From Armatimonadota bacterium (GTDB taxonomy: Bacteria > Armatimonadota > HRBIN16): DNA of 64,000 nt. The stretch lies in the NCBI GenBank assembly GCA_963677485.1, contig OY781964.1, positions 3,328,001 through 3,392,000 of the forward strand. The letters are read 5' to 3'. Under the pieces are notes generated by a model. The model worked only from the letters and a program-made list of their open reading frames with translations, was not told where the DNA came from and searched no databases. Made by a program: the position numbers and the translations under genes. Below are positions 13,587-29,666 of the stretch, piece by piece (the stretch's first letter is position 1; the number at the start of each line of letters is the position of its first letter).

Positions 13587-13647
13587 GTAGGGGCAAGCCC
13601 CTGTGCTTGCCCGTTTAACGGTTTGGGCGAGGAGACCTCGCCCCTAC
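13587..13647. repeat. Inverted pair of GTAG-type REPs (REPIN-like doublet)
   Basis: gtaggggcaagcccctgtgcttgccc ... gggcgaggagacctcgcccctac; the distal GTAG overlaps the TAG stop of the GH38 gene. Confidence 0.8.
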
Positions 13648-16583
13648 GCCAACCGTAGGCTCTTGATCTCGAAGGGGCGGAAGCTGAGCGCGATGGTGCT
13701 GTCCTGCACCTCCACACCCTCGATCGGCTCCTCCATGAGGTTCACCACCGTGGCCGACGATACCGGCAGGCCGCATGTCACCAGGCAGTCCACATCGGCA
13801 CCGGTGCCCTCATACAGTCGCACGATCAGACCTTCGCCGTCTTCCGCACGCTTGATCGCCTCCACATAGACGCTAGAGGAGCTCAGTTTCAGAATGCTGC
13901 CCTTGCTGCCGCTCTCCAAAACCCGTAGCGGGCTGTTCAGCACATGCGCGGCTTGACGTACTTGGCCCTTCACGTAGTCACCGGTGTGTGGGTATAACGC
14001 GTAGGTGAAGCTGTGCTGGGCACGGTCGGCCACAGGATCGGGATCGCCTGGGGTGCGCAGCAGGTGCAGGCTGATCTGCCCCTGGTGGAAGGCGTGGCCG
14101 TATTTGCAGTCGTTGAGTACCGCCACACCGCGTGACCGCTCGCTGAGGTCAACCCAGCGATGGGCACAGACCTCAAACATGCTGTATTCCCACACGGTGT
14201 TTTGGTGGGTGGGCCGCTGGATGGTGCCAAACTGGATTTCGCAGTCAGCGGTGTTGGTGTGGATGGTGGTGTCGAAGTCCGCACGCAGCTGCTTGGCGGC
14301 GTCCTTCCAGTCGCATTCGGTGCGGAACTCCAGACTGGCTGATCCCGCTGTGAGGGTGATCCACTGCGTCAAGCTGCTCTCGCCGTAGCGACGGACCTGC
14401 TTCAGCACCGCCTGCGGACCGTCCACATAAGCACACTGCTCCACGAGCTCCATATACTGTGGCATCTGGTCGGATAACCAGATTGGGAAGTCCCAGGCAT
14501 CGCCATAGTCATCATAGATACGGAGCTGGTTGCTGGGTGCTTCGAGTGCTTCAAATCCGGTCTTCTTGTCAAACATGCTGATAAGATTCCCACTGGCGTC
14601 AAACTCGGCGCGCACCAGCTCGTTCTCCAGCAGTGTCTCGGTAGCCGTCACTTCGGGAATCGCCTCCTGGCTGAGGATGCCGAAGCCGCAAGAGGGGGCC
14701 TGCGCCCACTGCCAGCCGCCGTCGGTCTTCACCCATTCACTGCGAAGCCAGCTCTGGCTGTTGAACACGCCTGCAGAACCCTGTCCCAGCGACGTCAGCG
14801 CGGTGCTGGTCAATGCGCAGACTTGCTCAGCCATGGCGGCGTACCGCTCTCGGCTTTCGTCGTACACGCGGGTGATGCTGCTGCCGGGGATGATGTCATG
14901 GAACTGGTAGAGCAGCACCTCTTTCCAGATTTTCTCCAACTCTGCCTTTGGATACTCCAGGCCTTTCACGCTGTTGGCCCAGGTGCTGAGCATCTCGCAA
15001 TCACGCAGCATCAACTCGATTTTGCGGTTCCACTTCTTGTTCCGTGCCTGGGTGGTGTAGGTGCCCTGATGGTGTGCGAGGTAGAGCTCGCCCTGCCAAC
15101 GCTCGAAGCGATGGGCATCCTTGGCGAACCTGGTCAGGAAGTCGCCGCACCATTCCTGCTTCACGCGAGGCAGTCCCAGCAGGTTACCGATGCGCTGCAG
15201 ACGCTCGATATGCTCTTCGCCCGGACCGCCGCCGCCGTCGCCGATTCCGAAGGCCATATACGCGGCTTCGCTGACACCTTTATCTATGTAACGCTGTTCG
15301 GTCACATAGGCTGATGTGGGGGTGGCGCTGCCGTTGTAGGTGTCCTCGGGCAGCAGATGAGTCATTACCTCTGAACCATCGATGCCGCTCCACCAAAAAC
15401 TATGGTGCGGGTAGGTTTTGAAGCTGTCCCAGCTAAGCTTTTGGGTGACAAACAGCTCGATACCGGCCAGTTTCATCACCTGAGGCAGGCTGCCAGTATA
15501 ACCGAAGCTGTCGGGCAGCCACACGATCTTACTGTCGATGCCGAACTTCTCGCGGAAATAGTTCTTACCGTACAGCAACTGGCGCACCAGCGATTCACCG
15601 CCAGGCAGGTTGGTGTCAATCTCCACCCACAGGCCGCCCAGAGGTTCCCATCGGCCTTCGGCTACGCGTTTCTCAATCTCCGCATACACGCTGGGGTAGT
15701 GCTGCTCCATCCATTCGTAAACCTGGGGCTGACTCTGCACAAATACGTATTCGGGATACCGCTCCATCATGCGCAGCGCGGTGGCGAAGGTGCGCGCGCC
15801 TTTACGGATGGTCTCACGAATGGGCCACAGCCAGGCCAGGTCGATGTGCGCATGTCCACCAGCACCGATGGTGAGCGTGGCATCTCCGCCTTTTTTGCTT
15901 AACTCGGGGGCCAGAATACCGCGTGCCCATTCGGCTTCGACTTCGTTGAGCTTTCTCATTCCCTGGAATACATCGCAAAGCGCGGTGAGTATCTGCGCCT
16001 TGCGTGCAGATCCTTCGGGCAGCACGGTGTAGAGGTCCAGCAGCACCTCAAAGTCATAGTAGAGCGCAGCCATCTGCGGGTTCTTGATGGCGATATTGGG
16101 CTGTTTATATGGTCCCCAAGTGCCGTGAGCACCGAACAGGCTGTTGGCCCCGGCGTCCATCCATATGTCGACCGTCTCGCCGCCCTTGGCAGGTTCGGCG
16201 AAGGGCACCACTCGTTTCCCCTCACAGCCCATGGCGTTTTTGACATGCGCCTTCACGTTGGTTGTGCCGATCACGGGGTTGCCGTCCGCATCCACCACCA
16301 GGCCTTCACCGCCCAGGTCGATCAGCAGCACGACTTGCTGGCCGGCGGCTTCAGCAGGGACGGTGCCAGAAAGGTGGAACCAGGCGCAGTCGAACAACTC
16401 GCCCCAGTTCTCGCCCACCTTGGCTTCAATGGGCTCACCGGACATGCGTTCGGAGTAGGGGACTGGCTCTTTGGTACGCCAAGCCTCCCAGTCCAGCGGG
16501 GCGATGACGGTATAACTGGAAGCATAAATGTGATCCCGAAGTCTAGGCAGCACTTTGGCGATGCGTATTTGATAACTAGGCAT
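13644..16583 (-). CDS. GH38 alpha-mannosidase
   Basis: GHAHIDLAWLW, WLPDSFGY, FGIGDGGGGP, GELYLAHHQGTYT, QFHDIIPGS, LNDCKYG; start MPSYQ after SD aggagg. Confidence 0.92.
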   Translation of the reverse strand: MPSYQIRIAKVLPRLRDHIYASSYTVIAPLDWEAWRTKEPVPYSERMSGEPIEAKVGENWGELFDCAWFHLSGTVPAEAAGQQVVLLIDLGGEGLVVDADGNPVIGTTNVKAHVKNAMGCEGKRVVPFAEPAKGGETVDIWMDAGANSLFGAHGTWGPYKQPNIAIKNPQMAALYYDFEVLLDLYTVLPEGSARKAQILTALCDVFQGMRKLNEVEAEWARGILAPELSKKGGDATLTIGAGGHAHIDLAWLWPIRETIRKGARTFATALRMMERYPEYVFVQSQPQVYEWMEQHYPSVYAEIEKRVAEGRWEPLGGLWVEIDTNLPGGESLVRQLLYGKNYFREKFGIDSKIVWLPDSFGYTGSLPQVMKLAGIELFVTQKLSWDSFKTYPHHSFWWSGIDGSEVMTHLLPEDTYNGSATPTSAYVTEQRYIDKGVSEAAYMAFGIGDGGGGPGEEHIERLQRIGNLLGLPRVKQEWCGDFLTRFAKDAHRFERWQGELYLAHHQGTYTTQARNKKWNRKIELMLRDCEMLSTWANSVKGLEYPKAELEKIWKEVLLYQFHDIIPGSSITRVYDESRERYAAMAEQVCALTSTALTSLGQGSAGVFNSQSWLRSEWVKTDGGWQWAQAPSCGFGILSQEAIPEVTATETLLENELVRAEFDASGNLISMFDKKTGFEALEAPSNQLRIYDDYGDAWDFPIWLSDQMPQYMELVEQCAYVDGPQAVLKQVRRYGESSLTQWITLTAGSASLEFRTECDWKDAAKQLRADFDTTIHTNTADCEIQFGTIQRPTHQNTVWEYSMFEVCAHRWVDLSERSRGVAVLNDCKYGHAFHQGQISLHLLRTPGDPDPVADRAQHSFTYALYPHTGDYVKGQVRQAAHVLNSPLRVLESGSKGSILKLSSSSVYVEAIKRAEDGEGLIVRLYEGTGADVDCLVTCGLPVSSATVVNLMEEPIEGVEVQDSTIALSFRPFEIKSLRLA

Positions 16584-16857
16584 AGGTATCCCTCCTGGTT
16601 GAGTAAAAGCAGATGATATTACTAATAGTTTAGCAGCGATGGAGTATGATTCCTGCTTGGACGATAAAGCCAGCTTCTGAGCACCGTCGATGTTATTCGT
16701 GATTCCGATTCGGTCTTGTGGATGTGCTATACTTGAGACACAGCCAAGAAGCTGCCCTGTGGCGAGAACCACTGGGCTAGACCCCGAACTGGGCATGACC
16801 CTCTTAGGGCGCGACCCCCCTACTCCCCCTGTTGGGGCGAGATTATGGGGGCCTCTT

Positions 16858-17036: not shown

Positions 17037-17068
17037 CTGGATTCACGTGGTTCGCTACGTGAATCCAG
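17037..17068. terminator. 14-bp stem with TTCG loop
   Basis: ctggattcacgtgg-ttcg-ctacgtgaatccag. Confidence 0.7.
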
Positions 17069-17175: not shown

Positions 17176-17778
17176 ATGAAACGCAATGGGCTACTAAAGT
17201 CTGCCTTGACGCTGACCGCCCTGGTTGTGCTAGGCGCATCCGCATTCGCACAGATTCCGAACGTGAAACCGCCATCGAACAACATGGCCTTCGAGTACAA
17301 TAGCCTCACTGCTATTGCCTACGAGAATCGCGCGGGTGAAGAACTCGATCTTGGTCTTCGGACTGAAATCTTGATTCGCCCTTACATCTATGTGACTGGT
17401 AATCTTACCAGCCGCTGGACTGTAAATGGATGGGGTTCTGCGGTCGATCAAAAAGAAGAGTGGCTGCACATCTATCACAACAAAGACCTGCGCCTGAAGT
17501 TCGTGGGCTGGGACCATCCCACCCTGAACGGAACTCCGGGAGCCGCAAATGTGAACATGCTTGTTAAACTGCAAGCTTTCGGTGCTAACGGAAATTCGCT
17601 TTGGTTAGGTGCTGACTATGCTCAAGCACCAGATGCCAACGTAGAGTTCCCCGTGATCACCGTTGGTGCAGATTATGGGCATCTCGCACTGGCTGTCGGC
17701 CGGCAGGTGCATATAACACAGACCACGGTTGCAGGCAACTACTACAACTACGCGACGATGATCGTAACCCAGCTCTAA
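17176..17778 (+). CDS. Secreted ~200 aa beta-rich protein, pilin/fimbrial-subunit-like
   Basis: Strong SD aaggagg, Sec signal (AFA|Q); C-terminal TTVAGNYYNYATMIVTQL resembles the AGxY..T.TV terminal strand of CS1/spore-coat-U/WxL-type subunits. Confidence 0.5.
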   Translation: MKRNGLLKSALTLTALVVLGASAFAQIPNVKPPSNNMAFEYNSLTAIAYENRAGEELDLGLRTEILIRPYIYVTGNLTSRWTVNGWGSAVDQKEEWLHIYHNKDLRLKFVGWDHPTLNGTPGAANVNMLVKLQAFGANGNSLWLGADYAQAPDANVEFPVITVGADYGHLALAVGRQVHITQTTVAGNYYNYATMIVTQL

Positions 17779-17904
17779 GGCTTGGTTATAAAACATCGCC
17801 CACTGGATTGTAACACTGCCGATTTTTGGCACGTTGATGAGATTTGGGCCCGCACTAATCAGCGGGCTCCTTTTCCTGTCATGTTCAATCTAGAGGTGAA
17901 TAAC

Positions 17905-19461
17905 ATGCGTATGTACAAAACAGTAGTAGCGAGCCTGTTCATGGCCACAGCACTGGCATCATCAATGTCTGCTCAGCAGCCTAGCGGCGGTATGGGCGGT
18001 CTGTTGGTGTCGCCGGGTATCCAGCGTGTGGATTCGCGCGCGGGTGCCACCGGCACGGTCAACTTTGAGCTGTATAATCCCAACACCGTGCCTACTATTG
18101 CCACCATAGAGCTCACCTCTTTTCTGCCGAAAGACTGGAGCTATGACGCGCAACTGAACGTACCTCATGCTCGCGATGCCAGTCCGTGGTTAAAGGTATC
18201 GCCTGAGACCTACCGATTTGGTCCCTATCAGCAACAGGTTCGCGGATACAACTATACGATCCCTCGCTCCGCCAAGGGAACCTACTGGTGTATGCTGCGT
18301 ATCAGTCCGCGTCCTGCATCTGGCGCCAGCACCAATAATGTGGTTTTTGAAGTGCCGATCATCTTCAATGTCGGCAGCGGTTACCGTCCAAACATCAAGC
18401 TGCAAACGCCTATCGTGACGGCGAACCCAGTCAAAACCGAAAGTAGTCTGGTGCTGACAGTGCCCATGCTTAACCTCGGTGATGGCAACGCGGTCATTAC
18501 CGCCACAGGAGACATCCGGCCTCTTGAGGGCGGTCGCATTATCAAGACATTTGATGTGCCTGACAAGAACCTGCTTCCTCAGAGCAAAAGATATATCCTC
18601 GCCGAACTACCGAAAGTATCTGATGGCAAGTATCGTGTGACGATGCGCATGAACGTGAATAGCCGCACATTGCCCAGAATTAAAGTAGATTTTGCTGTGG
18701 TGAAGGGTAAGGCGACAGGCCTTGATGACCCAAAGGTGCTGGAAATGGCTCCCATTTCTATAGAACCTCCGGCATTCGCGTTGGATATGCCGGCCGGGGC
18801 CACTAAGCAGCAGGCGTTGCGTATCCGGAACAATGGGACCAAGCCGATTACATTACAGATATCCGCCAACTCTGTGGAACAGGTAATAAGCGGAGCACTT
18901 GGGTCGAGTGAACTTCCCCCGCCGCAGGGGCTCACGGTCACTATCGATCCTGTGGAATTGGTGCTTCAGCCGAATGAGCTGGGCAGCAGCCGACTCCAGA
19001 TAGGTGTAGATAAATCGGCCAAGGGCGATTTATGGATGGCTTTGTCTGTGGCGGTGAAGGGCAGCACCACCAGTCTTCGTGAGATGATCACAGGTAATGT
19101 GATGGTCAGTAAGACGGCGGATCCCAAGATGGAAGTCACTGATCTGCAACTCATCAAGGCGCAGGGCAGGCCGATCCAAGTTCGGTTCAATGTGAAAAAT
19201 ACCGGAAACAAAGCGGTCTCGCCGGTCGCCACCGCCGCTATATTGGATCGTGGCGTTCAAGTGGTGAACTACCTGGAAGTGCCTCGTGTTGGTGATGGGG
19301 GTGTGATCCCGGGAGCTACGATCGCCAATTCCGTGATGCTTCCGATCGACATTAAGCCTGGGGAATACGTTGTAGAAATATCATATCAGTATACTCCTCA
19401 ACTTACAGCGAAGGGTCGACTGCCCTTATCTGTAGTAAAACCGGTAAAAAAGACTAAATAA
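17905..19461 (+). CDS. Secreted multi-Ig protein, PapD/EcpB/DUF916-like pilus chaperone
   Basis: Signal peptide; VSP...AGATGTVNFELYN, GTYWCML, and repeated V.N.G / PG.Y.V Ig-like motifs in about four domains. Confidence 0.5.
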   Translation: MRMYKTVVASLFMATALASSMSAQQPSGGMGGLLVSPGIQRVDSRAGATGTVNFELYNPNTVPTIATIELTSFLPKDWSYDAQLNVPHARDASPWLKVSPETYRFGPYQQQVRGYNYTIPRSAKGTYWCMLRISPRPASGASTNNVVFEVPIIFNVGSGYRPNIKLQTPIVTANPVKTESSLVLTVPMLNLGDGNAVITATGDIRPLEGGRIIKTFDVPDKNLLPQSKRYILAELPKVSDGKYRVTMRMNVNSRTLPRIKVDFAVVKGKATGLDDPKVLEMAPISIEPPAFALDMPAGATKQQALRIRNNGTKPITLQISANSVEQVISGALGSSELPPPQGLTVTIDPVELVLQPNELGSSRLQIGVDKSAKGDLWMALSVAVKGSTTSLREMITGNVMVSKTADPKMEVTDLQLIKAQGRPIQVRFNVKNTGNKAVSPVATAAILDRGVQVVNYLEVPRVGDGGVIPGATIANSVMLPIDIKPGEYVVEISYQYTPQLTAKGRLPLSVVKPVKKTK

Positions 19462-19571
19462 AATGAAAAACCAGTATAAATACTTGGACATTTGGACCAA
19501 TAGCAAGGTAACATATGAGAGCCTAGCAAATTTGCAGGCATCTATTTGTGTTGCACCCAAGGGGGTGTGAA

Positions 19572-22124
19572 ATGCTCGCATTTACTACTAAGGCGAAGCT
19601 GACCACAATAATTGTGCTGTCGATGATGGCACCCATGACTTGGAGCCAGGATGCGTCTATGACACCGGAGCCTGCACAGCAGGTTACCGTGGTGGTGAGA
19701 CGTGGCGATACGTTATGGGGATATTCGCGCAAATATGGATGCTCTGTAGCGCAAATTAAAGCAGCGAACAATTTGAAGCGTGATTCTGTAGTGCTTGGTG
19801 AACAGATTAAAATACCGACCTCGACCCCATCGATGGCTCCAGAAGCCTCTGAAACCGTCGCTGGAGATGCCCCTGTTGATCTATTGAACGGCTCTGCAGG
19901 TTCTGCACCCACTCCTGTGATCACTGAGAATGCTCCGATAGTGATGCATACTGTGAAATCTGGAGAAACATTACGATCAATCTGTGAAGCCTACGGTGTC
20001 AGTGCGCCGGAGTTCATTAAGCTGAATAAGATCGGTCCGGGATACAGGCTTGCTGTAGGGGCGAAGCTCAAGATTCCAGGGCGTGCCACGCCTGCTGAAC
20101 CGACATCAGACAATACTAATGTAAGTAATGACGTGCCGACTGCTGTCACCCAAACCGCCGATATAAGTGCTGATGGCACGGACCTGCTGGGGGCAGGGCA
20201 TCAGTCTGTGGCCAAACCGTCCCCTGGATCCAAACCAGCTAAGGATACAAGCACAAGCACAAGCACGAACACGAGTTCGACATCAAACCAGGCCAAACCT
20301 CCGTCAGACCTGGACAGTTGGATCAACGCTGTGCCTGGCGACGAGCCGCCCCCTACACAGAACGCCTTACCGAAAGAAAACGGAACCGAACCTGATAACA
20401 CATCTGGCAATGTGTTAAAGCCTGATACCCAAAACACAAATACATCCGAGACAGGCTCTCATACAGGCAGTTCTCTGCCATCACTCGGCTCTGAGCAAAC
20501 GCCTCCGGAGCCGGTACCTGTACAGATGGCATCGCCTGACAGCCAAAATACGGGTACTGAGACGACTACTTCTACAAACACAGATAATACTAGCGGGCCA
20601 AATAAGGACCAGTCTGAACTATTGGTGCCTGACACATCGACGGCTGCATCTCCGCCCACTGAACTGCTGGTGCCGGATACCAGCACAGCAGCAAATACCA
20701 CGAGCACAAATAAGCCCTCTGTCACAACACCGGATGTCAGTAAACCCAATGTGTTAGTGCCAGATGACCAACAGGCGGGAACGACCAATGTCGTTCCTTC
20801 TGTGCCTGATGCCGGTGGGGCGACTGTGCTCGTTCCGGATGTTGAGGGGAGCGCTAGCGAAAACTCCACGGTAGTGACCCCAGATGATGGAAGCAGCACA
20901 AACAACTATTCATCCAATATAGGTGGTGTAACCAACCTGTTGGATAGTACGCCAGTGGTGACCGATGTTGAGATACCGACGGTCAAGAAGAATCAGCCTC
21001 TGGTGACCAATGTATTTGTGGATTCCGACATTAAGCAGGTTCTGTCAGATATCGCGAGTGTGGCGCATGTCGTGATTATCTCGGACGACAGTGTGAAGCC
21101 GCAGAATATCTCGATCGAATTTAACAAGGAGCCTCTCGACACGGCTCTCGAAAAGGTGGCTCTGTCTGGCGGATTAGTTTGGAAAGAGCGATCAGATGGT
21201 GTTTATCTGGTCAGCTCAGGCACACCCGATTCGCCTCTGTTTCGCGAATTCGCCATGACTAAGCGGTATATGCCATCTAATATGAGCGCTGAAACGCTGG
21301 GGGATCTGCTTTCCAGTAGTTGGAAGAACTACTACAAGGTAGACAAAGTTGGGAACATGATCACCATCACAGCACCCCCTCAAGTGTCTGAAAAGATCGA
21401 ACGCGACCTCAAGATGATCGATTCACCCCTGCGTCAGATCGTGGTGGATGCAGTCATTATCGAGATGACAGCCGATACCGGTATGGACACCGGCTTTAGC
21501 TGGAACTTCGGCAAAGGCGGGGTTGATGCGGACCAGAACATAGTGTATGCCAAAGCGACTGAGCTTGACTTTGTGAAGCTCAAGGCTTTGTTGGCAAATG
21601 GCAACGCGAAGATGAAGGCAAATCCAAGGGTTTCATGTTTTGAGGGTAGAGAGACCACGCTGACCGTCGGAAAAGAGACTTTCTACTCCATCATCACAGG
21701 GAATGCGATATACGGCTCATCACAGATCCAAAAGATAGCCACCGGTATTACCTTGAAGGTGACCGTGTATATCGGGGCTGATGGCTATGTCACGATGAAG
21801 CTGGACCCCGAAGTGGGGGACTTTACCACTCCGGTCGGTGGCAATCCTACTGTGACCATACGGCGAGCCAATACCACTATGCGGGTCAAGAGCGGCGAGA
21901 CTTTGGTCATCGGTGGATTGGTGCAAGAGCTAGAATCGAAGAGTGCGACCAAGGTACCTGTACTGGGCGACCTTCCGTTTATCGGTGAGTTGTTCAAGTC
22001 AAATAAGACCAGTAAATCACGAACAGATGTCGTGATGTTGATCACCCCGCACCTTTCTGAAAAGGGAGCGGGCGACGTAACCGAGACGTTGCGTAAGCTA
22101 GATGCGTCAGCTTTGAAGCAATAG
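19572..22124 (+). CDS. LysM-containing secretin (GspD/PilQ family)
   Basis: Two LysM (VVRRGDTLWGYSRKYG; TVKSGETLRSICEAYG), S/T/P-rich linker, N-domains, secretin core QIVVDAVIIE, ANPRV, GITLKVT, GETLVIGGL, KVPVLGDLPFIGELFK, MLITPH. Confidence 0.92.
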   Translation: MLAFTTKAKLTTIIVLSMMAPMTWSQDASMTPEPAQQVTVVVRRGDTLWGYSRKYGCSVAQIKAANNLKRDSVVLGEQIKIPTSTPSMAPEASETVAGDAPVDLLNGSAGSAPTPVITENAPIVMHTVKSGETLRSICEAYGVSAPEFIKLNKIGPGYRLAVGAKLKIPGRATPAEPTSDNTNVSNDVPTAVTQTADISADGTDLLGAGHQSVAKPSPGSKPAKDTSTSTSTNTSSTSNQAKPPSDLDSWINAVPGDEPPPTQNALPKENGTEPDNTSGNVLKPDTQNTNTSETGSHTGSSLPSLGSEQTPPEPVPVQMASPDSQNTGTETTTSTNTDNTSGPNKDQSELLVPDTSTAASPPTELLVPDTSTAANTTSTNKPSVTTPDVSKPNVLVPDDQQAGTTNVVPSVPDAGGATVLVPDVEGSASENSTVVTPDDGSSTNNYSSNIGGVTNLLDSTPVVTDVEIPTVKKNQPLVTNVFVDSDIKQVLSDIASVAHVVIISDDSVKPQNISIEFNKEPLDTALEKVALSGGLVWKERSDGVYLVSSGTPDSPLFREFAMTKRYMPSNMSAETLGDLLSSSWKNYYKVDKVGNMITITAPPQVSEKIERDLKMIDSPLRQIVVDAVIIEMTADTGMDTGFSWNFGKGGVDADQNIVYAKATELDFVKLKALLANGNAKMKANPRVSCFEGRETTLTVGKETFYSIITGNAIYGSSQIQKIATGITLKVTVYIGADGYVTMKLDPEVGDFTTPVGGNPTVTIRRANTTMRVKSGETLVIGGLVQELESKSATKVPVLGDLPFIGELFKSNKTSKSRTDVVMLITPHLSEKGAGDVTETLRKLDASALKQ

Positions 22125-22145
22125 GCTTGAGATGACACGAGGAGA

Positions 22146-25100
22146 ATGACCATGAAAAAGATCACCAACCAGCCAGGGAGTTCCAGTATTAAGGTAGTGC
22201 TCGCAGCAGCATTGCTGGCTTTGGCCGTATTTACGCCATTGGCGGCACAGTCGCCAGACCTTACGGCTACAACGTCAATACCGGATTCTGTGCTTGACCA
22301 GGTGGCTGAGCCCAGTCAGAATACGGCGCAACCGGCAGCTAGACGATACACCGTAAAGCATCGAAGAGTCGCGCCTCGCCATACATATACTCAGGTACGC
22401 AGACCTGCGCTTGTAGCGGCGGTGCCTGCTGGTCGTACTACGGTGAAAGCGGTGGCGCAGGGATCTGGTGTCAAACTCACCATAAAAAGCCCTAGCTCGC
22501 TTGCTGTCAAGGCTAACAACGGCTCAACCATGGTATTGATGGATGTTCATGGTGGACGGGCGGTGGTTCCCGGCAGCTCCAAGGTGAATGGGGTGGCTCT
22601 TCGATGGTACATGGCCGCGCGAGATGATGGGCAAAACCCAGCCATTGAGGCATTCTGCGCCAGTGCGATGAAGATGGAGATGTCGCAACCCAGTCCGAAT
22701 ACCGTGGTTGTTTGGCTTTGGCCTGCTGCAGGAAGCTCTGCGAGTGCAGCCCCTGCACAGAACGTGACGAAAAGCAAACCAGCAGTCAGCAACACTTCGT
22801 CAACGATGATGGGCGGGGCTACGGCTCCCGTCGCCCAATCGGCACAAGCGAATATGATGCGCTCCGCTGCTCTTGATGCGGTTCGTCGGGCGGGAGCACC
22901 GAACGTGATGGTGACGACGGGTGGTCAGGCTGAGATGGGCTCCGGTTCGACCGGCAACGCTTCTTCCATGGCACCCTCCGGTCGATCATCGCTGCAATCC
23001 AATGACCCGGCACCTTCACCACAAAGCCCATGGCAGATGTTGCCAGCGGTTGTTTCAGGAAATGCTTCGGATGTGTCGAAGATGATCCCGTTCACCGCAC
23101 TGGGTGCTGAAGATCCGATGAAGTTTACGGGGATAGCAAGAATACGTCAGCTCACGGTGGGTGTGAGTTATCCAAAAAAACTGACCGGTGCCACACTAAA
23201 GTTCAAGATCAGTCATAGTCCGGCTTTGCTGGAAGAGATCTCCAGTATGAAGGTAGAGATTAACCACCGCACAGTGGCCGTTCTGCCTTTAATGCGCAAG
23301 GACTACATGGGCCGCGTGTATGAGATACCGATTGACCCTAAACTGTTGGGTAGTTTCAATACCATTACTTTCGGTTTGATAGGCAGCTATACTCTGTTCT
23401 GCGAAGATCCCAACAGCCCACTTATCTGGTCTGAGGTTCTGGATGGAAAACTGGTGCTCGATCGACAGGAAGTTCCGGGGTTATATGACCTGGCGGAACT
23501 GCCTGCGCCGTTCTTCAGCACCTCACAGAACACTTCTGTAAATCTGAATATGATGGTTGGCCGCCAAAAGGGAAGCGTCTGGGCTGGCTCAGTTGTCGCT
23601 GGCTGGTTTGGTGTTCAGTCCGACTATCGGCCATTGAACCTTAAGGTGACAGATTCTCTTTCTGCAGGCAATGTGATCGCGGTCATGCTGGAATCTGAGC
23701 TGCCTCAGGTATTATCGCAATATGCAGTTGGCAACCCCAGCATCCAATTGATACCCAATCCTATGGGCGGCGGTGCCGTGTTACTGGTAACCGGCAGCAG
23801 CGAAGAGCAGTTGCGGGTAGCCGCAGGTGCCTTAGCATTCTCGTCATTACCTATGAGCGGTTCCCGTGTGGCGGTGCAGGAGTTTACCCCTCCCAGCAAG
23901 CGGAACCCATACGATGCGCCGCGCTGGATACCATCTGACCGACCGGTTCGGTTCGGAGATTTGATAGCTCGTGATGCGATGGAATCTGTCGGCTTGACAG
24001 CCGATCCTATACGTCTGCCTTTCCGCCTGCCGCCGGATCTTTTCCTGCAGCAGACCAAGGGTTTGCCGATCAACCTGAGTTACCGCTACACACCTGGTCG
24101 CAACCAGACCAACAACCGTCTTGACGTGTTTGTCGACAACCAGTTACTGCAGAGCTATCCGTTGCTGTCGCAATGGAACGACCCTGAGGGTGCCGCGCAA
24201 ACTATTAAACCTGGTTACAAAGAGTATGAAAAACAACGCACATTCTACATCACAGATGCTTACAATAAGCCGACAGCGGGTGAGCTGCAATTCCGGTTTG
24301 CGTTTGACTATACGCGTGAAAATCCGTGTAACGACTTCCCGTTCTTCGCGTTCCGGGGAAGGATTGACCCAGACAGCACGATTGATCTGACGAACATTCC
24401 GCATTATGTTCGTATGCCGGACTTGTCGCTGTTCGTAAACAACGGATATCCGTATACCAAGCTGGCTGATCTATCGGAAACTGTGTTCTCGCTGCCGGAT
24501 AACCCCAGCACAGCGGAGCGGACTGCGCTCATGGCAGTGTGCGCCAGATTTGGTGCTATCACAGGCATGGCTCCTTACCGGCATGTATTGATCAACGGCG
24601 CTCAGACGGCTCCGCTTGGTAAAGACATCATCGCCATCCGTGACGATAATGGTGCCGCCTTACCAGATGCATGGCGCGATGCGCTGCAACTACGCGCTCA
24701 GGGTGGTGGATTCCGTATACGAGACAACGACCTGAATGACCTGTTCAACGACACAGATGGGCAGCTAAACAGGCAAGAACTGGGCGATCTGCTGGCCAGT
24801 CAAGATGGACAGCTCTCAGTAATGGTCTCTTGCGAGCGGCCTGACGACAAAAGCCGATGCCTGGTGGCCATGCTGGCTACTGGCCCCGATATGCTTGACC
24901 ATATGGTGGCGGCATATTTGGATCCGAACCTGCGAAGCGGCATCAAACGTGATACCGCCGTATTCGGTCCTGAGGCGGTGAAAACCGCACGACTGGCCAA
25001 AGCGTTCTATGTTGGTAATCTACCTATGGCAGACGCCGTGCATCTGTGGCTGCGCAACTATCCGCTTGTGTGGATCAGCCTGACTCTGCTGTTGATCCTC

Positions 25101-25193
25101 ATCGGTGTGATGTCCTTCCGAAGGTATCGTCATCTGCGACAGATCGTGGCGCAGGGCGGACAGCAGCCTACTCCTGGCAGCTCCACACCATAG
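22146..25193 (+). CDS. bcsB: BcsB-family periplasmic co-polymerase subunit with ~300 aa N-terminal extension
   Basis: SHSPALL, CEDPNSPLIW, LPAPFF, PYDAPRWIPSDRPVRFGDL, FRLPPDLF, IDPDSTIDL, MPDLSLFVNNGYPYTKLADLSET, FYVGNLP and a C-terminal TM anchor. Confidence 0.88.
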   Translation: MTMKKITNQPGSSSIKVVLAAALLALAVFTPLAAQSPDLTATTSIPDSVLDQVAEPSQNTAQPAARRYTVKHRRVAPRHTYTQVRRPALVAAVPAGRTTVKAVAQGSGVKLTIKSPSSLAVKANNGSTMVLMDVHGGRAVVPGSSKVNGVALRWYMAARDDGQNPAIEAFCASAMKMEMSQPSPNTVVVWLWPAAGSSASAAPAQNVTKSKPAVSNTSSTMMGGATAPVAQSAQANMMRSAALDAVRRAGAPNVMVTTGGQAEMGSGSTGNASSMAPSGRSSLQSNDPAPSPQSPWQMLPAVVSGNASDVSKMIPFTALGAEDPMKFTGIARIRQLTVGVSYPKKLTGATLKFKISHSPALLEEISSMKVEINHRTVAVLPLMRKDYMGRVYEIPIDPKLLGSFNTITFGLIGSYTLFCEDPNSPLIWSEVLDGKLVLDRQEVPGLYDLAELPAPFFSTSQNTSVNLNMMVGRQKGSVWAGSVVAGWFGVQSDYRPLNLKVTDSLSAGNVIAVMLESELPQVLSQYAVGNPSIQLIPNPMGGGAVLLVTGSSEEQLRVAAGALAFSSLPMSGSRVAVQEFTPPSKRNPYDAPRWIPSDRPVRFGDLIARDAMESVGLTADPIRLPFRLPPDLFLQQTKGLPINLSYRYTPGRNQTNNRLDVFVDNQLLQSYPLLSQWNDPEGAAQTIKPGYKEYEKQRTFYITDAYNKPTAGELQFRFAFDYTRENPCNDFPFFAFRGRIDPDSTIDLTNIPHYVRMPDLSLFVNNGYPYTKLADLSETVFSLPDNPSTAERTALMAVCARFGAITGMAPYRHVLINGAQTAPLGKDIIAIRDDNGAALPDAWRDALQLRAQGGGFRIRDNDLNDLFNDTDGQLNRQELGDLLASQDGQLSVMVSCERPDDKSRCLVAMLATGPDMLDHMVAAYLDPNLRSGIKRDTAVFGPEAVKTARLAKAFYVGNLPMADAVHLWLRNYPLVWISLTLLLILIGVMSFRRYRHLRQIVAQGGQQPTPGSSTP

Positions 25194-25202
25194 CGAAAGG
25201 AA

Positions 25203-26402
25203 GTGGATGCGATGCATTTGGTAAATAAGCTCCTTGGTCTATCGGTTTCGTTAGTCTGTATAGCCGCCAGTCTCACCTGCCTGGCGGCAGATAAAGTATA
25301 CGAAGCGGATATGAACAAGTTCTATGATCTTCAAAAGACAGATCAAGCTGCAGCGATGGATCTCATGCTGCAGCTTGCCCGAAAATATCCGCAGAATAGA
25401 ACCGTGCAGTTGAGTGCAGGCTATCAGTTGCTTGCAAAGAAAGAGCCTGCTCTGGCACTGCCGTATTTTGAGACGAGCTATAAGCTGGATCCCGGCGATA
25501 TACAGACCGTGATGCAGATAGGGTTCTTGCTTGATGGGTTGGGTCGGCAAAAAGAGGCGATGCGTTATTTCCGCATTGCCATGAACAGCAAGGCTGATAA
25601 CAAAACACGAGACCAGGCTTCTACAGCGGTCCAAAACCTGGCAGGTCAGCAGACACGGCAGTTGAAAGATCCGCAGTTTGTCGAGTTCACCTTTTCCCCG
25701 CTGTACATGAGCCGGTTCGACAACACGATATTTCCAATGAACTTGAAGCTGGGCACCAAGCTTGCCGGTATGAAGAACACTGATGTCTATGTGAGCTTGA
25801 AGAGCAGCAAAGATAGCCGAAGCGGTATAGGGGCCATACCAAAGATATTTAATGATAATGCGCTGGTCATGGCTCTTGGCATCAGGACGCAGCCATTTGA
25901 TGGTATTCCTATTACGCTGTATGCCGAAGCTGGCACGGCCTACAAATACCTGAAAGACCCTTACGAAAAGCAGTGGCAGGAAGACTACCGCGTGGGCGCC
26001 TACTATTTCAAGGGGTTTGAGCCAGGCTTCAAAATCACACAGCTCAAGGCTTTCCAACCCATGGGTGACATCAACATGGATGTTTCCTATTATTCCAGAT
26101 ATGACAATAACATCATAGGGTTTGGGCGAGGCCGTCTAGGGTTGCGGGTGATCAATACGGCATCCAGCTATGCAGACTTGTATGCACTGGGTTCCATCTC
26201 ATTTGACACCAAGGGCGAGTACTACAACAATAACCTGGCTGGTGGCATAGGCATTGCCTGGAGACCGGATCGTTTCACACCTCTGACCCTCCATGCAGAA
26301 TACATCTGGGGTAGTTATATTGGTGGCGGAGTAAGGCCATCCGATGTCATGCCATCCTACGAAGACCTGCAAATAGGCATGGATTGGTACGTGAGGTTAT
26401 AG
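25203..26402 (+). CDS. TPR plus outer-membrane beta-barrel protein (NfrA/YaiO-like export porin candidate)
   Basis: Signal peptide, 2-3 TPR-like helical repeats (AGYQLL..ALPYFE..YKLDP; IGFLLDGLGRQKEAMRYFR), followed by aromatic alternating beta strands to the C-terminus. Confidence 0.6.
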   Translation: MDAMHLVNKLLGLSVSLVCIAASLTCLAADKVYEADMNKFYDLQKTDQAAAMDLMLQLARKYPQNRTVQLSAGYQLLAKKEPALALPYFETSYKLDPGDIQTVMQIGFLLDGLGRQKEAMRYFRIAMNSKADNKTRDQASTAVQNLAGQQTRQLKDPQFVEFTFSPLYMSRFDNTIFPMNLKLGTKLAGMKNTDVYVSLKSSKDSRSGIGAIPKIFNDNALVMALGIRTQPFDGIPITLYAEAGTAYKYLKDPYEKQWQEDYRVGAYYFKGFEPGFKITQLKAFQPMGDINMDVSYYSRYDNNIIGFGRGRLGLRVINTASSYADLYALGSISFDTKGEYYNNNLAGGIGIAWRPDRFTPLTLHAEYIWGSYIGGGVRPSDVMPSYEDLQIGMDWYVRL

Positions 26403-26403
26403 T

Positions 26404-28488
26404 ATGTCGACTATAGCAGCGCGAAAACAGCGCTTTGAGATACCCATAGGGCCTCTTGAAGCGATCACACTAGTCACTGCTATCACCTTCATGATTGCTG
26501 GCTTTACACTGGCACTATGGGCCATCAGCGACTTGATGGGCTATTTCCGCGTGACGGGTTGGATGATCCTGGGGCAGGTGTTTGGATGGCTGCTGGCGTT
26601 TGTGGCCACCATATTCCTGCTGTCGGGACTAGACGACCTGTTCTTGGACCTAATCTACTACACACGCAAAATCGTCTCTCACAAGCGGATGACCAAGGCT
26701 CCGTATGCCGCCATTTCGCTAGAGCAGTTGAACACCAGGGAGCGTAAGCGCATTGCGCTGATGGTGCCGTGCTGGCGTGAGGCGGAAGTAATCGGAGCGG
26801 CCATTGCACATAACCTGGAAATTATCGACTACGATAACTACGAGGTTTTTGTCGGAACATATCCTAACGACCAGCTGACCATCGATGCTGTGGCTGAGGC
26901 GGCTTCCCGATTTCCTAGGGTTCACTGCGTGGTGGGTGCCAACCCCGGCCCAACTAACAAAGCGGACAACCTCAACCAGGTATACATGGCGATTCTACAG
27001 TATCAAGAATCCTCAGGTAACCTATTTGATGTGATTGTCATGCATGACGCGGAGGATGTTATTCATCCCATGGCGTTCAAGCTTTACAACTATCTGATGC
27101 CTGAGGCGGGGATGGTGCAGATACCCATCTTCCCTCTTGAGGTGCCGTTGTTTAACTTCACCCACTGGGTATACAACGATGAATTTGCCGAATACCACGT
27201 AAAAGACGTTGTGAGCCGCGGTTTGATAAGCGGTATCGTGCCTTCGGCTGGTGTGGGCACGGCATTCAGCCGAGATGCACTGCAGAAGCTGAACGACATT
27301 TACGCAGGTGAAGTGTTCAGCACCAATAGTCTGACGGAAGACTATGCGATCTCGGTAAAGATCAGGAAGCATAACCTGCGGCCGGTCTTCGTTCAGCAGT
27401 TCGTGCCGCGTATCGTGGACCGTAGAAAGTATTTCGGTTTGTTTGGACCCTGGGTGGAAGCGACTGTGCCTGAGTGGATCGCCACGCGGTCATTCTTCCC
27501 GACAGTCTATCGCAACGCGGTGCGCCAGCGCAGCCGTTGGATACTCGGCATCGTGTTCCAGGAGTGGACCAACACAGGATGGCCGGGTACCCTGGCGATG
27601 AAATACTGCCTGTATCGGGACCGCAAAGCCCTTTTCGCCAACTTTGTGACTATGTTGGGATATATGGTGTTTATCTACACCATTATCTTTGCTGTCTGGA
27701 CACAATATTGGCCAGATTCGCTGCAGATGATGTCATTAATGGAATACCGAACCTGGCTGAGTTTCGTTCTAGTGGCAGACCTGTTCCTGATGCTATTTAG
27801 GATGAGCCAGAAGGTGACTACGAATTACAGGCTTTACGGGTTCTTGCCAGCCATGCTTAGCGTCACACGCACGCCCTACGCGAACATCATCAGCTCTCAT
27901 GCAATGTTCATTGCCATGCAGCAGTTTTTCAAGGGACGCAAGACTGGTATCCAGTTGTCATGGGAAAAGACGACTAACCGGTTCCCGACAATGGTTACGC
28001 CTGAGCGAGTTGTCTTGACTTTACGTGAGATTATGAAATTGCGAGGCTACGTGACAGACGAGCAGTTGCTAGAGGCTTCTATTAATACGAACGATACTGA
28101 TGAAGCAGTGGTACAGTATCTGCTTACGCATAACATCATCACGTCGCAGGAACATCTGCAGTCAATTTCCGAGCTGTATCAAGTACCATTCATCGACATC
28201 GAAAGTGCCTCGTCGACGTCTGGGCAGCTCACGAACCTGCCAAAGAGCGTGATGGATACCTTGTTGCGGCATGGTATCATCCCCATCCGCTTGATTGGCG
28301 ACCACTTGCTGTTGGTGTTAGCGCATCCTGACCTGGCATTTGGTGATGAAGAGATACTAGAGGTTCTGTCTGACTACACCATTGAACTTGGTCTGTCACT
28401 GCCAGAAGATATCGAGCGGTATTACATAGAACACGGCATTGCCATGCAGCCGCACACTCATGAAGAGGGCGAGAACCAGGAACCGTAG
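26404..28488 (+). CDS. nfrB: NfrB-like processive GT2 glycosyltransferase with C-terminal MshEN/T2SSE_N-like domain
   Basis: LSGLDDLFLD, IALMVPCWREAEVI, VGTYPND, PGPTNKADNLN, HDAEDVIHP, PSAGVGTAFSR, SLTEDY, RQRSRW (QxxRW), RDRK, WEKT: hallmark NfrB motifs. Confidence 0.85.
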   Translation: MSTIAARKQRFEIPIGPLEAITLVTAITFMIAGFTLALWAISDLMGYFRVTGWMILGQVFGWLLAFVATIFLLSGLDDLFLDLIYYTRKIVSHKRMTKAPYAAISLEQLNTRERKRIALMVPCWREAEVIGAAIAHNLEIIDYDNYEVFVGTYPNDQLTIDAVAEAASRFPRVHCVVGANPGPTNKADNLNQVYMAILQYQESSGNLFDVIVMHDAEDVIHPMAFKLYNYLMPEAGMVQIPIFPLEVPLFNFTHWVYNDEFAEYHVKDVVSRGLISGIVPSAGVGTAFSRDALQKLNDIYAGEVFSTNSLTEDYAISVKIRKHNLRPVFVQQFVPRIVDRRKYFGLFGPWVEATVPEWIATRSFFPTVYRNAVRQRSRWILGIVFQEWTNTGWPGTLAMKYCLYRDRKALFANFVTMLGYMVFIYTIIFAVWTQYWPDSLQMMSLMEYRTWLSFVLVADLFLMLFRMSQKVTTNYRLYGFLPAMLSVTRTPYANIISSHAMFIAMQQFFKGRKTGIQLSWEKTTNRFPTMVTPERVVLTLREIMKLRGYVTDEQLLEASINTNDTDEAVVQYLLTHNIITSQEHLQSISELYQVPFIDIESASSTSGQLTNLPKSVMDTLLRHGIIPIRLIGDHLLLVLAHPDLAFGDEEILEVLSDYTIELGLSLPEDIERYYIEHGIAMQPHTHEEGENQEP

Positions 28489-28527: not shown

Positions 28528-28604
28528 TCGGACGGATCAGGTTCACAGTTGCTAACTGTCAATTACCAATTGACAATTGTGTGAACCTGATCCGTCCGAT
28601 TTTT
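28528..28604. terminator. Perfect 20-bp inverted repeat between convergent genes, with T-tract
   Basis: tcggacggatcaggttcaca (28528-28547) / tgtgaacctgatccgtccga (28580-28599), ttttt; loop contains caatt-type 7-mer repeats. Confidence 0.8.
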
Positions 28605-28607
28605 GGC

Positions 28608-29666
28608 TTATGGCTTAGGCAAATGCCGTGCTGCTTTATGGATGGCCTTCCACTTAAGCCGTTCGGCATAATCGGCTGAGATGGTCTGCTTTTGAAGCTG
28701 GTGGGCTGCCTCGCGCATCAGCCGATGATAGCTATTGAGCCTGGACTGCTCAAGGGTTCCTGCATCAACCGCTTTCAACACCGCGCAGTCAGGTTCTGTC
28801 TGATGCTGGCAATCTGCAAACCGGCACAGCTTACCTAGCTCAGCGATGTATTCAAAACCCGCCTCGTTGCCCTCAACACCCCATAGCCCCAGCTCACGCA
28901 TTCCTGGAGTGTCCAGCACCATGGTCCCGGACGGTAGCAGATAGAGGTTTCGACTGGTTGTGGTGTGGCGACCTCTACTGTCGTCAGCCCGAACCTGTTG
29001 TGTGCTGGCCAACTCGTGACCGGCAAGTGCATTCAGCAATGTAGACTTGCCCGCGCCGCTTGAGCCGACGAGTGCTATGGTTCTGCCAGGCTGAAGGTGC
29101 CGGTCCAACTCGTCAAAACCCGACCCGGTGACGCTGCTGATGGCGATGCAGTCTACAGAGAGCATCCGCCGTTGCATCTGGTCCAGAACCCGCTGCCAGT
29201 CAGATTTGAGGTCTGACTTTGTCAGCACCAGCACAGGTTCGGCTCCGCTCTGCCAGGCCTGAGCCACATATCGTTCGATGCGGGCGGGGTTCAGGTCGAA
29301 GTCGAGCCCGGTGACCACAAACAGCGTGTCTATGTTCGCGGCAATGGGCTGCGGCTGCTCAGTTGGGCCTGCCTGTTTGCGCATAAACAGGCTCTGACGC
29401 TCCATCACCGCATCAATCAGTGCCATTTCGCCTATTGCGGGCAGAGCCCTTAGGTGAACCCAGTCGCCAACCGTGGGCATATCAAGCCGACTGGCGGCGT
29501 GGTGCTGCATCGCGCCGGTAGTCTGCGCCGGATGCATCCCATCGGTGCAGATTATCTCATATTGTGTGCGTGATTCGGACAGCACGCGAGCCATGATGGC
29601 TCCCTCACCGAACTGTTGGTCGGCCAGGAACTGTCTGGATGGATTCCATCCGTATTGTTGGATCAA
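28608..29666 (-). CDS. rsgA: Ribosome small subunit-dependent GTPase A
   Basis: PTVGDWV, IAANID, LTKSDL (G4), GSSGAGKST (G1), GRHTTT, DTPGMRE (G3), CRFADCQHQTEPDCAV zinc finger; TTG start with SD aggagg. Confidence 0.93.
   Translation of the reverse strand: MIQQYGWNPSRQFLADQQFGEGAIMARVLSESRTQYEIICTDGMHPAQTTGAMQHHAASRLDMPTVGDWVHLRALPAIGEMALIDAVMERQSLFMRKQAGPTEQPQPIAANIDTLFVVTGLDFDLNPARIERYVAQAWQSGAEPVLVLTKSDLKSDWQRVLDQMQRRMLSVDCIAISSVTGSGFDELDRHLQPGRTIALVGSSGAGKSTLLNALAGHELASTQQVRADDSRGRHTTTSRNLYLLPSGTMVLDTPGMRELGLWGVEGNEAGFEYIAELGKLCRFADCQHQTEPDCAVLKAVDAGTLEQSRLNSYHRLMREAAHQLQKQTISADYAERLKWKAIHKAARHLPKP

Follow-up and report, generated by a model that had tools for sequence, protein, structure and literature searches.

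To our knowledge, diderm fibres built by donor-strand exchange are known only from the chaperone-usher pathway. Usher-free pili of this kind were reported in October 2026 for the Gram-positive WxL system only: in that preprint, Enterococcus WxL proteins assemble into a pilus through donor-strand exchange, for which a membrane-anchored DUF916/DUF3324 chaperone primes them, and the system is given as confined to Bacillota (bioRxiv 10.64898/2026.10.17.759780). Among synthase-dependent polysaccharides, Sellner et al. record a BcsB homologue in an nfr cluster of Achromobacter (PMC8669472). Here we analyze a cluster of six genes, o1–o6, from an Armatimonadota bacterium (GTDB HRBIN16; assembly GCA_963677485.1), located at 17176–28488 of a 64,000-nt stretch of contig OY781964.1 (positions 3,328,001–3,392,000, forward strand). 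This whole stretch is referred to as the window, and coordinates are those of the window unless another locus is named.

The cluster combines two gene sets: a trio for a pilin-like protein (o1), a tandem chaperone-like protein (o2) and a LysM-secretin (o3), followed by genes for BcsB (o4), a short TPR protein (o5) and an NfrB-like glycosyltransferase (GT) of family GT2 (o6). With confidence that is about evenly balanced, we read it as a chaperone-plus-secretin fibre operon to whose 3′ end an Nfr-type exopolysaccharide (EPS) operon has become fused; the two are probably co-expressed and mechanistically separable. The initial annotation had proposed a single integrated machine of a composition matching no described system. 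The claim of novelty divides: pairing of BcsB with NfrB is already in print for Achromobacter, and with its polysaccharide half the cluster adds one more variation on a recurrent Nfr/BcsB theme; the trio of secretin, PapD-like and pilin-like genes was not found described. In the literature searched, which covered few subscription journals, no system was found that couples a secretin to a PapD-like protein. This usher-less trio is the unusual part of the cluster and is worth experiment.

Gene content and layout

The 5.22-Mb genome, contained in one contig, carries the six genes on the plus strand.

o1, 17176–17778, plus strand: pilin-like protein; ATG start with an AAGGAGG ribosome-binding site upstream; signal peptide
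o2, 17905–19461, plus strand: chaperone-like protein of 518 aa; most likely start at 17905; signal peptide
o3, 19572–22124, plus strand: LysM-secretin; most likely start at 19572, alternative GTG start at 19548; signal peptide
LysM domains of o3, about 19692–19817 and 19941–20144, plus strand: two domains, 7.5e-24
Secretin domain of o3, 21588–22055, plus strand: PF00263, 6.4e-39, 133.7 bits against a cut-off of 27.5
o4, 22146–25193, plus strand: BcsB-like protein
o5, 25203–26402, plus strand: short TPR protein, 399 aa
o6, 26404–28488, plus strand: NfrB-like GT2

Open reading frames and sequence bear out the layout first annotated, namely six co-oriented genes bounded by a hairpin on either side, with gaps of 21 nt (o3–o4), 9 nt (o4–o5) and 1 nt (o5–o6); the gaps within the trio are longer (o1–o2, ~126 nt; o2–o3, ~110 nt). 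The LysM, secretin, BcsB, TPR and GT2 domains were recovered by Pfam or NCBIfam matches, and the secretin gene does lie beside the pilin-like and chaperone-like genes. As had been noted, the window contains no BcsA, BcsZ, BcsC, usher, PilB/GspE ATPase or GspF platform. Two of these absences extend to the genome: no BcsA (TIGR03030) scored above the cut-off, the best reaching 24.8 bits, and no protein matched the usher family PF00577, which also stayed below cut-off in all 301 sampled genomes of the phylum. Eight T2SSE-ATPase matches are present elsewhere in the genome, all outside the window, the nearest ~0.5 Mb away. Base composition was examined for a signal of horizontal transfer and proved uninformative: the cluster has 52.1% GC against 54.4% for the genome (standard deviation 2.3% in 11.3-kb windows), and 13% of windows are lower.

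The two gene sets occur apart

The six-gene order is kept in both other species of the genus examined (59–98% protein identity), where the secretin–bcsB spacing is ~24 and ~27 nt, compared with 21 nt here. Outside the genus the two halves were found separately. The sister genus has the BcsB, TPR and GT genes only, without the fibre trio and without any o2 match. Conversely, o2 relatives are present in 22 of the 301 sampled genomes, and 18 trio loci outside the genus were collected (5 closer, 8 distant and 5 on metagenome contigs). The order o1-like, o2-like, secretin is seen in all five closer loci; a secretin gene lies directly 3′ of the o2-like gene in all eight distant loci and on four of the five metagenome contigs, the fifth ending 1.1 kb after o2. 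Secretin adjacency is therefore recorded in 17/18 loci, with the last cut short by its contig end, and none of the 18 carries a BcsB, o5 or GT gene. The genes 3′ of the trio vary from locus to locus (GH38, epimerase, ABC-F, PhyH, Crp). Among the annotated neighbours of five trios, no ATPase, platform, pseudopilin, prepilin peptidase, type IV pilin or PilMNOP-type alignment gene was found.

The polysaccharide genes gave the reciprocal picture. We surveyed the neighbourhoods of 79 loci with the nearest o6 relatives, one genome per species. An o5-like gene adjoins the GT gene in 19/79 loci, such o5–o6 pairs coming from Elusimicrobia, Legionella, Coxiellaceae, Bacteroidota, Ignavibacteria, Chlorobiaceae and Parachlamydiaceae bins. 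BcsB is present in four (two genomes of the same genus and two of the sister genus), and o1, o2 or a secretin in two, both of the same genus. NfrB-like synthases 36–37% identical to o6 were also seen on two contigs binned as Methanofastidiosum, an archaeon (L073, L090), which reflects either mis-binning or transfer into the archaeon. A Coxiellaceae metagenome-assembled genome (L039, 8756–9991) has an o5-like gene with two in-frame stops beside its synthase, which may be a pseudogene or a sequencing error.

Secretin phylogeny also separates the trio from other systems. A quick maximum-likelihood tree was built from 42 secretin domains, with 6 of 48 rows (<200 residues) left out and a midpoint root; some of the rows classed as other are the same gene twice, from overlapping loci. 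A branch supported at 96 by the Shimodaira–Hasegawa-like approximate likelihood-ratio test separates the complete set of 20 trio secretins from 22 other secretins of the same genomes. o3 nests in the trio-secretin clan, nearest to a trio secretin without adjacent EPS genes; this genome encodes two further secretins, both in clusters that contain PilM. o3 aligns to trio secretins elsewhere only from about residue 477 onward, and its N-terminal extension, consisting of two LysM domains and a long Ser/Thr/Asn/Pro-rich linker, is specific to the genus. Taken together, trios without EPS genes, an EPS set without the trio, the position of o3 inside the trio-secretin clan and a candidate outer-membrane protein of the EPS set's own (o5) speak against the integrated machine originally proposed.

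Five genomes that were checked have 4–8 secretin matches each, which is unusually many. Two other Armatimonadota genomes carry three tandem secretin paralogues (L158, 10198–15502; L159, 10498–14249 onward), and a check for o2-like neighbours of these triplets found none.

Predicted folds of o1 and o2

Neither o1 nor o2 has a Pfam or NCBIfam match; in Pfam at E ≤ 0.01 this includes PF00345, PF02753 and the pilin, WxL, DUF916 and DUF3324 families. The o1 family is small, with 34 representatives at E ≤ 0.001 among 1.84 billion. The AlphaFold2 model of o1 (predicted local distance difference test, pLDDT, 84.7) has a β-sandwich core at residues 68–200 and an unstructured N-terminal stretch. The top rows in VIA-align were Pyrodictium cannulae (Z 8.5, root-mean-square deviation (rmsd) 7.0, 140 aligned), the CfaE pilin domain (Z 8.4, rmsd 3.2, 118 aligned) and the Hyper2 tube (Z 8.1), and further matches included Csu, Fim, CS17, CupE, Pap, Caf1, TasA, Ena and EcpA. 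Strand-complemented fibre subunits make up ~30 of the 50 rows, and Foldseek returned the same types of match. The nearest named ESM Atlas clusters are SCPU (14% of members) or DUF4402 (38%). Cyanobacterial SCPU/PapD pairs accompany ushers (PMC4390875).

We then considered how o1 copies might associate. A predicted homo-trimer (three copies, residues 26–200) scored 0.66, compared with 0.00 for the best control. In calibration this mark was reached by 20/30 proteins solved as one-chain pairs and by 1/23 solved as single chains, to be read with the caution that the o1 run differs in using its own alignment and three copies instead of two. The runs agreed in at least 95% of contacts, with a partner pLDDT of at least 81. 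In the model, residues 35–70 of one copy lie on residues 68–97 and 174–199 of the next; an N-terminal strand thus packs on the neighbour's first and last strands, which is the geometry of donor-strand complementation. Residues 57–68 (LDLGLRTEILIR) show alternating hydrophobics across the family alignment. Some trio loci have two o1-like paralogues (L029, 2770–3654 and 5452–6141; L032, 16452–17144 and 17148–17867), and in L029 one of them sits between o2 and the secretin gene. Such pairs could be major and minor subunits.

The o2 model (pLDDT 83.0) contains four Ig-like sandwiches that form two tandem PapD/WxLIP-like modules. In VIA-align, residues 282–513 match WxLIP (9i1y, Z 16.5, 223 aligned) and the chaperone-usher chaperones CfaA, YadV, SafB, FimC and CsuC (Z 11.6–12.3), and residues 32–282 match PapD (Z 10.4); across these six chaperones, 177–197 residues of the o2 halves are aligned. 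Foldseek on the whole model gave only generic multi-Ig/ASH matches (TM-score 0.13–0.25) and was set aside, the domain reading being taken from VIA-align. A scan of o2 for hydrophobic segments returned none, and thus no C-terminal membrane helix. Word-index searches with o2 returned 6 proteins with the single sequence and 11 with a profile, and say little on taxonomic range.

A possible chaperone-secretin pathway

Comparison with described fibres places the trio between several of them. Like the Fim, Pap, CFA/I and Csu chaperone-usher pili, it has a predicted subunit fold with head-to-tail contact between N- and C-terminal strands, a putative chaperone whose halves align to PapD, FimC, CfaA, CsuC, SafB and YadV, a subunit gene placed first and followed by a hairpin, and, as proposed here, Sec export and ATP-independent assembly. 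It differs in that the conserved third gene encodes a secretin instead of an usher, and in that o2 is a tandem of two modules. With the WxL/Elr pilus of Enterococcus it shares the absence of an usher and, in fold only, the best structural match of o2, which lies in the second half. That pilus is a thin fibre made by chaperone-primed donor-strand exchange, as described in the preprint (bioRxiv 10.64898/2026.10.17.759780). It differs from the trio in having a membrane-anchored chaperone and a sortase-anchored fibre on a monoderm wall, whereas o2 lacks a C-terminal helix and its conserved partner is an outer-membrane secretin. Both the present host and Enterococcus belong to the Terrabacteria. 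Type IV pili, type II secretion system (T2SS) pseudopili and the phage pIV system resemble the trio in the N0/STN-like N-domains of o3 homologues and in the notion that a filament, already folded, travels through the pore of a secretin. Unlike them, the trio comes without ATPase, platform, prepilin peptidase or type IV pilin genes, and its secretins form a clan of their own.

From gene content, homologies, conservation and predicted folds, we propose how the fibre might be polymerised, chaperoned and passed through the secretin. o1 would be exported by Sec and polymerise head to tail, the N-terminal stretch of each subunit completing the sandwich of the next. Soluble periplasmic o2 would hold and prime subunits, and its two modules could hold two side by side. 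The fibre would then cross the outer membrane through the dedicated secretin o3, in the place of an usher and without ATP. The LysM domains, apparently gained in this genus, most likely tie the secretin to peptidoglycan. We put forward tentatively, at well under even confidence, that the trio represents a third route to donor-strand-exchange pili, a chaperone-secretin pathway in which a tandem PapD/WxLIP-like protein acts as primer and a secretin lineage replaces the usher. This pathway would be conserved across Armatimonadota, would link the WxL pili of monoderm Bacillota to diderm chaperone-usher pili and, in the present genus, would be wired to an Nfr/BcsB operon and to LysM. If true, such a trio, conserved in a diderm phylum of the Terrabacteria with no usher found, would show that a secretin is able to serve filaments assembled without an ATPase, would suggest a testable route across the outer membrane for fibres of this kind, and would bear on the evolutionary origin of chaperone-assisted pili.

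Several points weigh against a pilus. The earlier labels pilin-like and chaperone-like stand on the predicted folds and fall short at the family level, where both proteins are without matches. The best Z of o1, 8.5, is within a range that, according to the tool, models often reach when they have no true match; because Z of ~8 is common, the fold alone is weak evidence. β-sandwich lectin, carbohydrate-binding module (CBM) and GOLD domains also appear in the o1 fold list (Z 5.6–7.3). The trimer prediction, besides departing from its calibration, may stem from solved pilus structures that the predictor has memorised. A search with the o1 profile detected no subunit gene in the eight distant loci; a small signal-peptide open reading frame usually lies upstream of the o2-like gene, as judged by eye. 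At double the size of known pilus chaperones, o2 might itself belong to the cell surface.

In one alternative, o1 and o2 would be Ig-like or β-sandwich proteins of the cell surface or matrix, for instance a lectin or an adhesin, that leave through the secretin as cargo, possibly powered by the distant type IV pilus- or T2SS-like ATPases. The four Ig-like domains of o2 with their many generic matches, a 96%-identical o2 homologue, assigned to Armatimonadota by its source and carrying the source name 'COG1470 family protein', the CBM, lectin and GOLD rows and the eight T2SSE-type ATPases would all suit it. Against it stand the donor-strand geometry of the predicted o1 oligomer, the dominance of strand-complemented fibre subunits in the o1 fold list, alignment of the o2 halves over almost the whole of pilus chaperones (180–223 residues), the lack of ATPase, platform and pseudopilin genes beside trios with annotated neighbours, and the hairpins 3′ of the o1-like gene, as typical for major-subunit genes. 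On this balance we consider the non-pilus explanation unlikely.

The polysaccharide genes

o4 is the sole BcsB of the genome (PF03170, 1.9e-144, 482.8 bits; domain at 23079–24869). It has hydrophobic segments at residues 15–33 (N-terminal signal or anchor) and 973–991 (C-terminal transmembrane helix). An N-terminal extension of ~300 aa (residues 1–311, 22146–23078) is in part low-complexity and in part β-rich (about residues 95–195); it has no Pfam match and does not align to the BcsB of the sister genus. As the only BcsB in a genome where BcsA is missing at the cut-off used, this protein must pair with the NfrB-like enzyme.

o6 matches GT2 at 3.1e-38, with the GT domain at about 26749–27699 and an MshEN-like region at about 28015–28425. 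Over 571 aa, which take in the GT2, membrane and MshEN-like parts, it shares 36% identity with E. coli NfrB (E 6e-118). The motifs D215-A-E-D218, T311-E-D313 and Q375-R-S-R-W379 are invariant in a six-sequence alignment and correspond to the NfrB signatures DxD, TED and QxxRW listed by the Hengge laboratory in its preprint (bioRxiv 10.1101/2021.10.01.462733). In NCBIfam, o6 fails NF008411 (471.2 against a cut-off of 1170) and passes NF011305, 'glycosyl transferase family protein' (434.6 against 409).

The MshEN-like region departs from the cyclic di-GMP (c-di-GMP)-binding consensus. The MshEN motif reads RLGxx(L/V/I)(L/V/I)xxG..., and o6 matches the domain with 22.7 bits, just below the cut-off of 23.1. 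The degenerate motifs of o6 lie at about residues 538–600 (28015–28200). Their glycine positions are R541 and V570, and in all three species of the genus they are replaced (G to R or Q in the first motif, G to V in the second), whereas the orthologues of the sister genus keep both motifs intact (RIGEIL..., LLGEIM...). At the sequence level, this replacement in one genus and retention in its sister is a new detail, and canonical c-di-GMP control has probably been lost here. In E. coli, mutation of the two corresponding NfrB glycines, G491 and G519, impairs N4 infection (PMC8669472). The orthologues of the two genera form a natural pair that differs in the c-di-GMP motif, for testing loss of this control.

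o5 has only weak TPR matches, and its C-terminal half is β-rich. By hhalign its TPR part falls on residues 620–724 of E. coli NfrA, just before the NfrA C-terminal domain; its nearest ESM Atlas clusters are YaiO-family outer-membrane protein and NfrA_C/TPR clusters (0.97–0.99), and 12 of 19 o5 homologues end in a C-terminal Phe. o5 is thus a candidate outer-membrane exporter, a 'mini-NfrA'. Membership of NfrA_C was considered and rejected: PF13283 is not matched by o5 or anywhere in the genome, and with both BLASTP and hhalign the alignment to E. coli NfrA was confined to the TPRs. A profile search against PDB sequences likewise returned TPR proteins only. The barrel of o5 is a weak point in our reading of the polysaccharide half: it is deduced, and what can be aligned to NfrA or to solved chains is the TPR part alone.

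These features support the synthase-dependent EPS set recognized at the outset (NfrB-like GT, BcsB and TPR/barrel protein). The set resembles E. coli Nfr in the adjacency of the synthase gene to that of a TPR-plus-β-rich partner, and in its synthase-dependent logic, in which adjoining genes encode an inner-membrane GT and an outer-membrane exporter. It differs in gene order, the exporter gene here preceding the synthase gene; in the size of o5 (399 aa, compared with 990 aa for NfrA), which PF13283 does not match; in the added BcsB subunit; in the absence of NfrA and YbcH homologues (tblastn of E. coli queries against the genome, nothing at E ≤ 0.01); in a wecB-like epimerase gene that is unlinked, ~1.4 Mb away; and in R and V at the MshEN glycines needed in E. 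coli. Like Bcs, it places a full-length BcsB with its C-terminal helix beside a processive GT2 and a TPR/barrel-type protein. Unlike Bcs, it has an NfrB-type synthase in place of a BcsA/PilZ-type one, none of which scored above the cut-off, no BcsZ or BcsC, and the N-terminal extension of BcsB. The EPS half therefore exemplifies a BcsB with an NfrB-type synthase in a genome free of BcsA. In a plausible scheme, the NfrB-like GT2 would polymerise and translocate a glycan, by analogy an N-acetylhexosamine polymer, which BcsB would guide across the periplasm and o5 would export.

Transcription and possible coupling of the two halves

Signals that bear on transcription are as follows.

Upstream hairpin, 17037–17068, plus strand: 12-bp stem closed by an 8-nt loop, in the intergenic region between o1 and the divergent gene upstream; partly terminator-like
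o1/o2 hairpin, 17846–17869, plus strand: terminator-like, GC-rich, followed by CTTTTCC
Downstream terminator, 28529–28604: 19-bp stem (28529–28598) followed by a T-run; common to the cluster and the convergent rsgA-like gene
RsgA GTPase gene, 28608–29666, minus strand: convergent with the cluster

A strong hairpin follows the o1-like gene at the same position in 9 of 10 related loci, a count made without shuffled-sequence comparison; that at 17846–17869 is possibly an attenuator that raises the ratio of subunit to helper. The EPS genes are probably co-transcribed with the secretin gene, because o3 ends 21 nt before bcsB; with probable co-transcription, fibre and polymer would therefore be made together. 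In this genus, the EPS operon would have been placed 21–27 nt behind the secretin gene, LysM gained and the c-di-GMP motif lost.

Two alternatives concern the junction between the halves. At one extreme, they would be plain neighbours, two operons separately transcribed and regulated that share only their position, the hairpins and short gaps having no joint meaning. A promoter-like site upstream of o3, which tells against our reading, the 126- and 110-nt gaps between o1, o2 and o3 and the independence of the modules elsewhere would fit this. The 21-nt o3–o4 gap, however, is too short for a terminator and a promoter, and the sequence scan listed no terminator-like site in it; the only strong terminator of the cluster lies 3′ of o6, and the arrangement is kept in three species at 59–98% protein identity. 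We regard mere neighbourhood as quite unlikely. At the other extreme stands the hybrid machine first proposed, in which the secretin would serve or physically couple both products: LysM might bind the N-acetylhexosamine polymer so that the fibre exits coated in glycan, or the glycan might itself pass the secretin. The secretin–bcsB gap held at 21, ~24 and ~27 nt in three species and the LysM extension limited to the genus that carries the fusion also fit functional coupling, and to that extent go against separable halves. LysM is known to bind GlcNAc-containing glycans, and loss of the c-di-GMP motif in the same genus suggests altered control of the synthase. Yet the modules are autonomous elsewhere, with EPS genes in 0/18 trio loci and a secretin in 2/79 GT loci, both of the same genus; the EPS set has its own candidate exporter in o5; and o3 belongs to the trio-secretin clan. 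The three loci with the fusion belong to a single genus and so represent one evolutionary event, which likewise counts against a hybrid machine. To this, too, we assign a distinctly low probability; physical coupling of fibre and polymer machinery is possible and is not indicated. An EPS operon fused behind a separable fibre operon is the account we retain.

Neighbouring genes

A GH38 α-mannosidase gene (13644–16796, minus strand) lies divergently upstream of o1-o2-o3. In a genome of another family (locus L029, 7665–9968), a GH38 gene lies immediately 3′ of the trio secretin. The presence of GH38 beside the trio in both places could be a remnant of an older common neighbourhood, or chance. Beyond rsgA, the window encodes a 1241-aa Big_2-domain protein (30146–33871) and a GH20 β-hexosaminidase (33958–35898), which may or may not be related to the nearby N-acetylhexosamine-type synthase.

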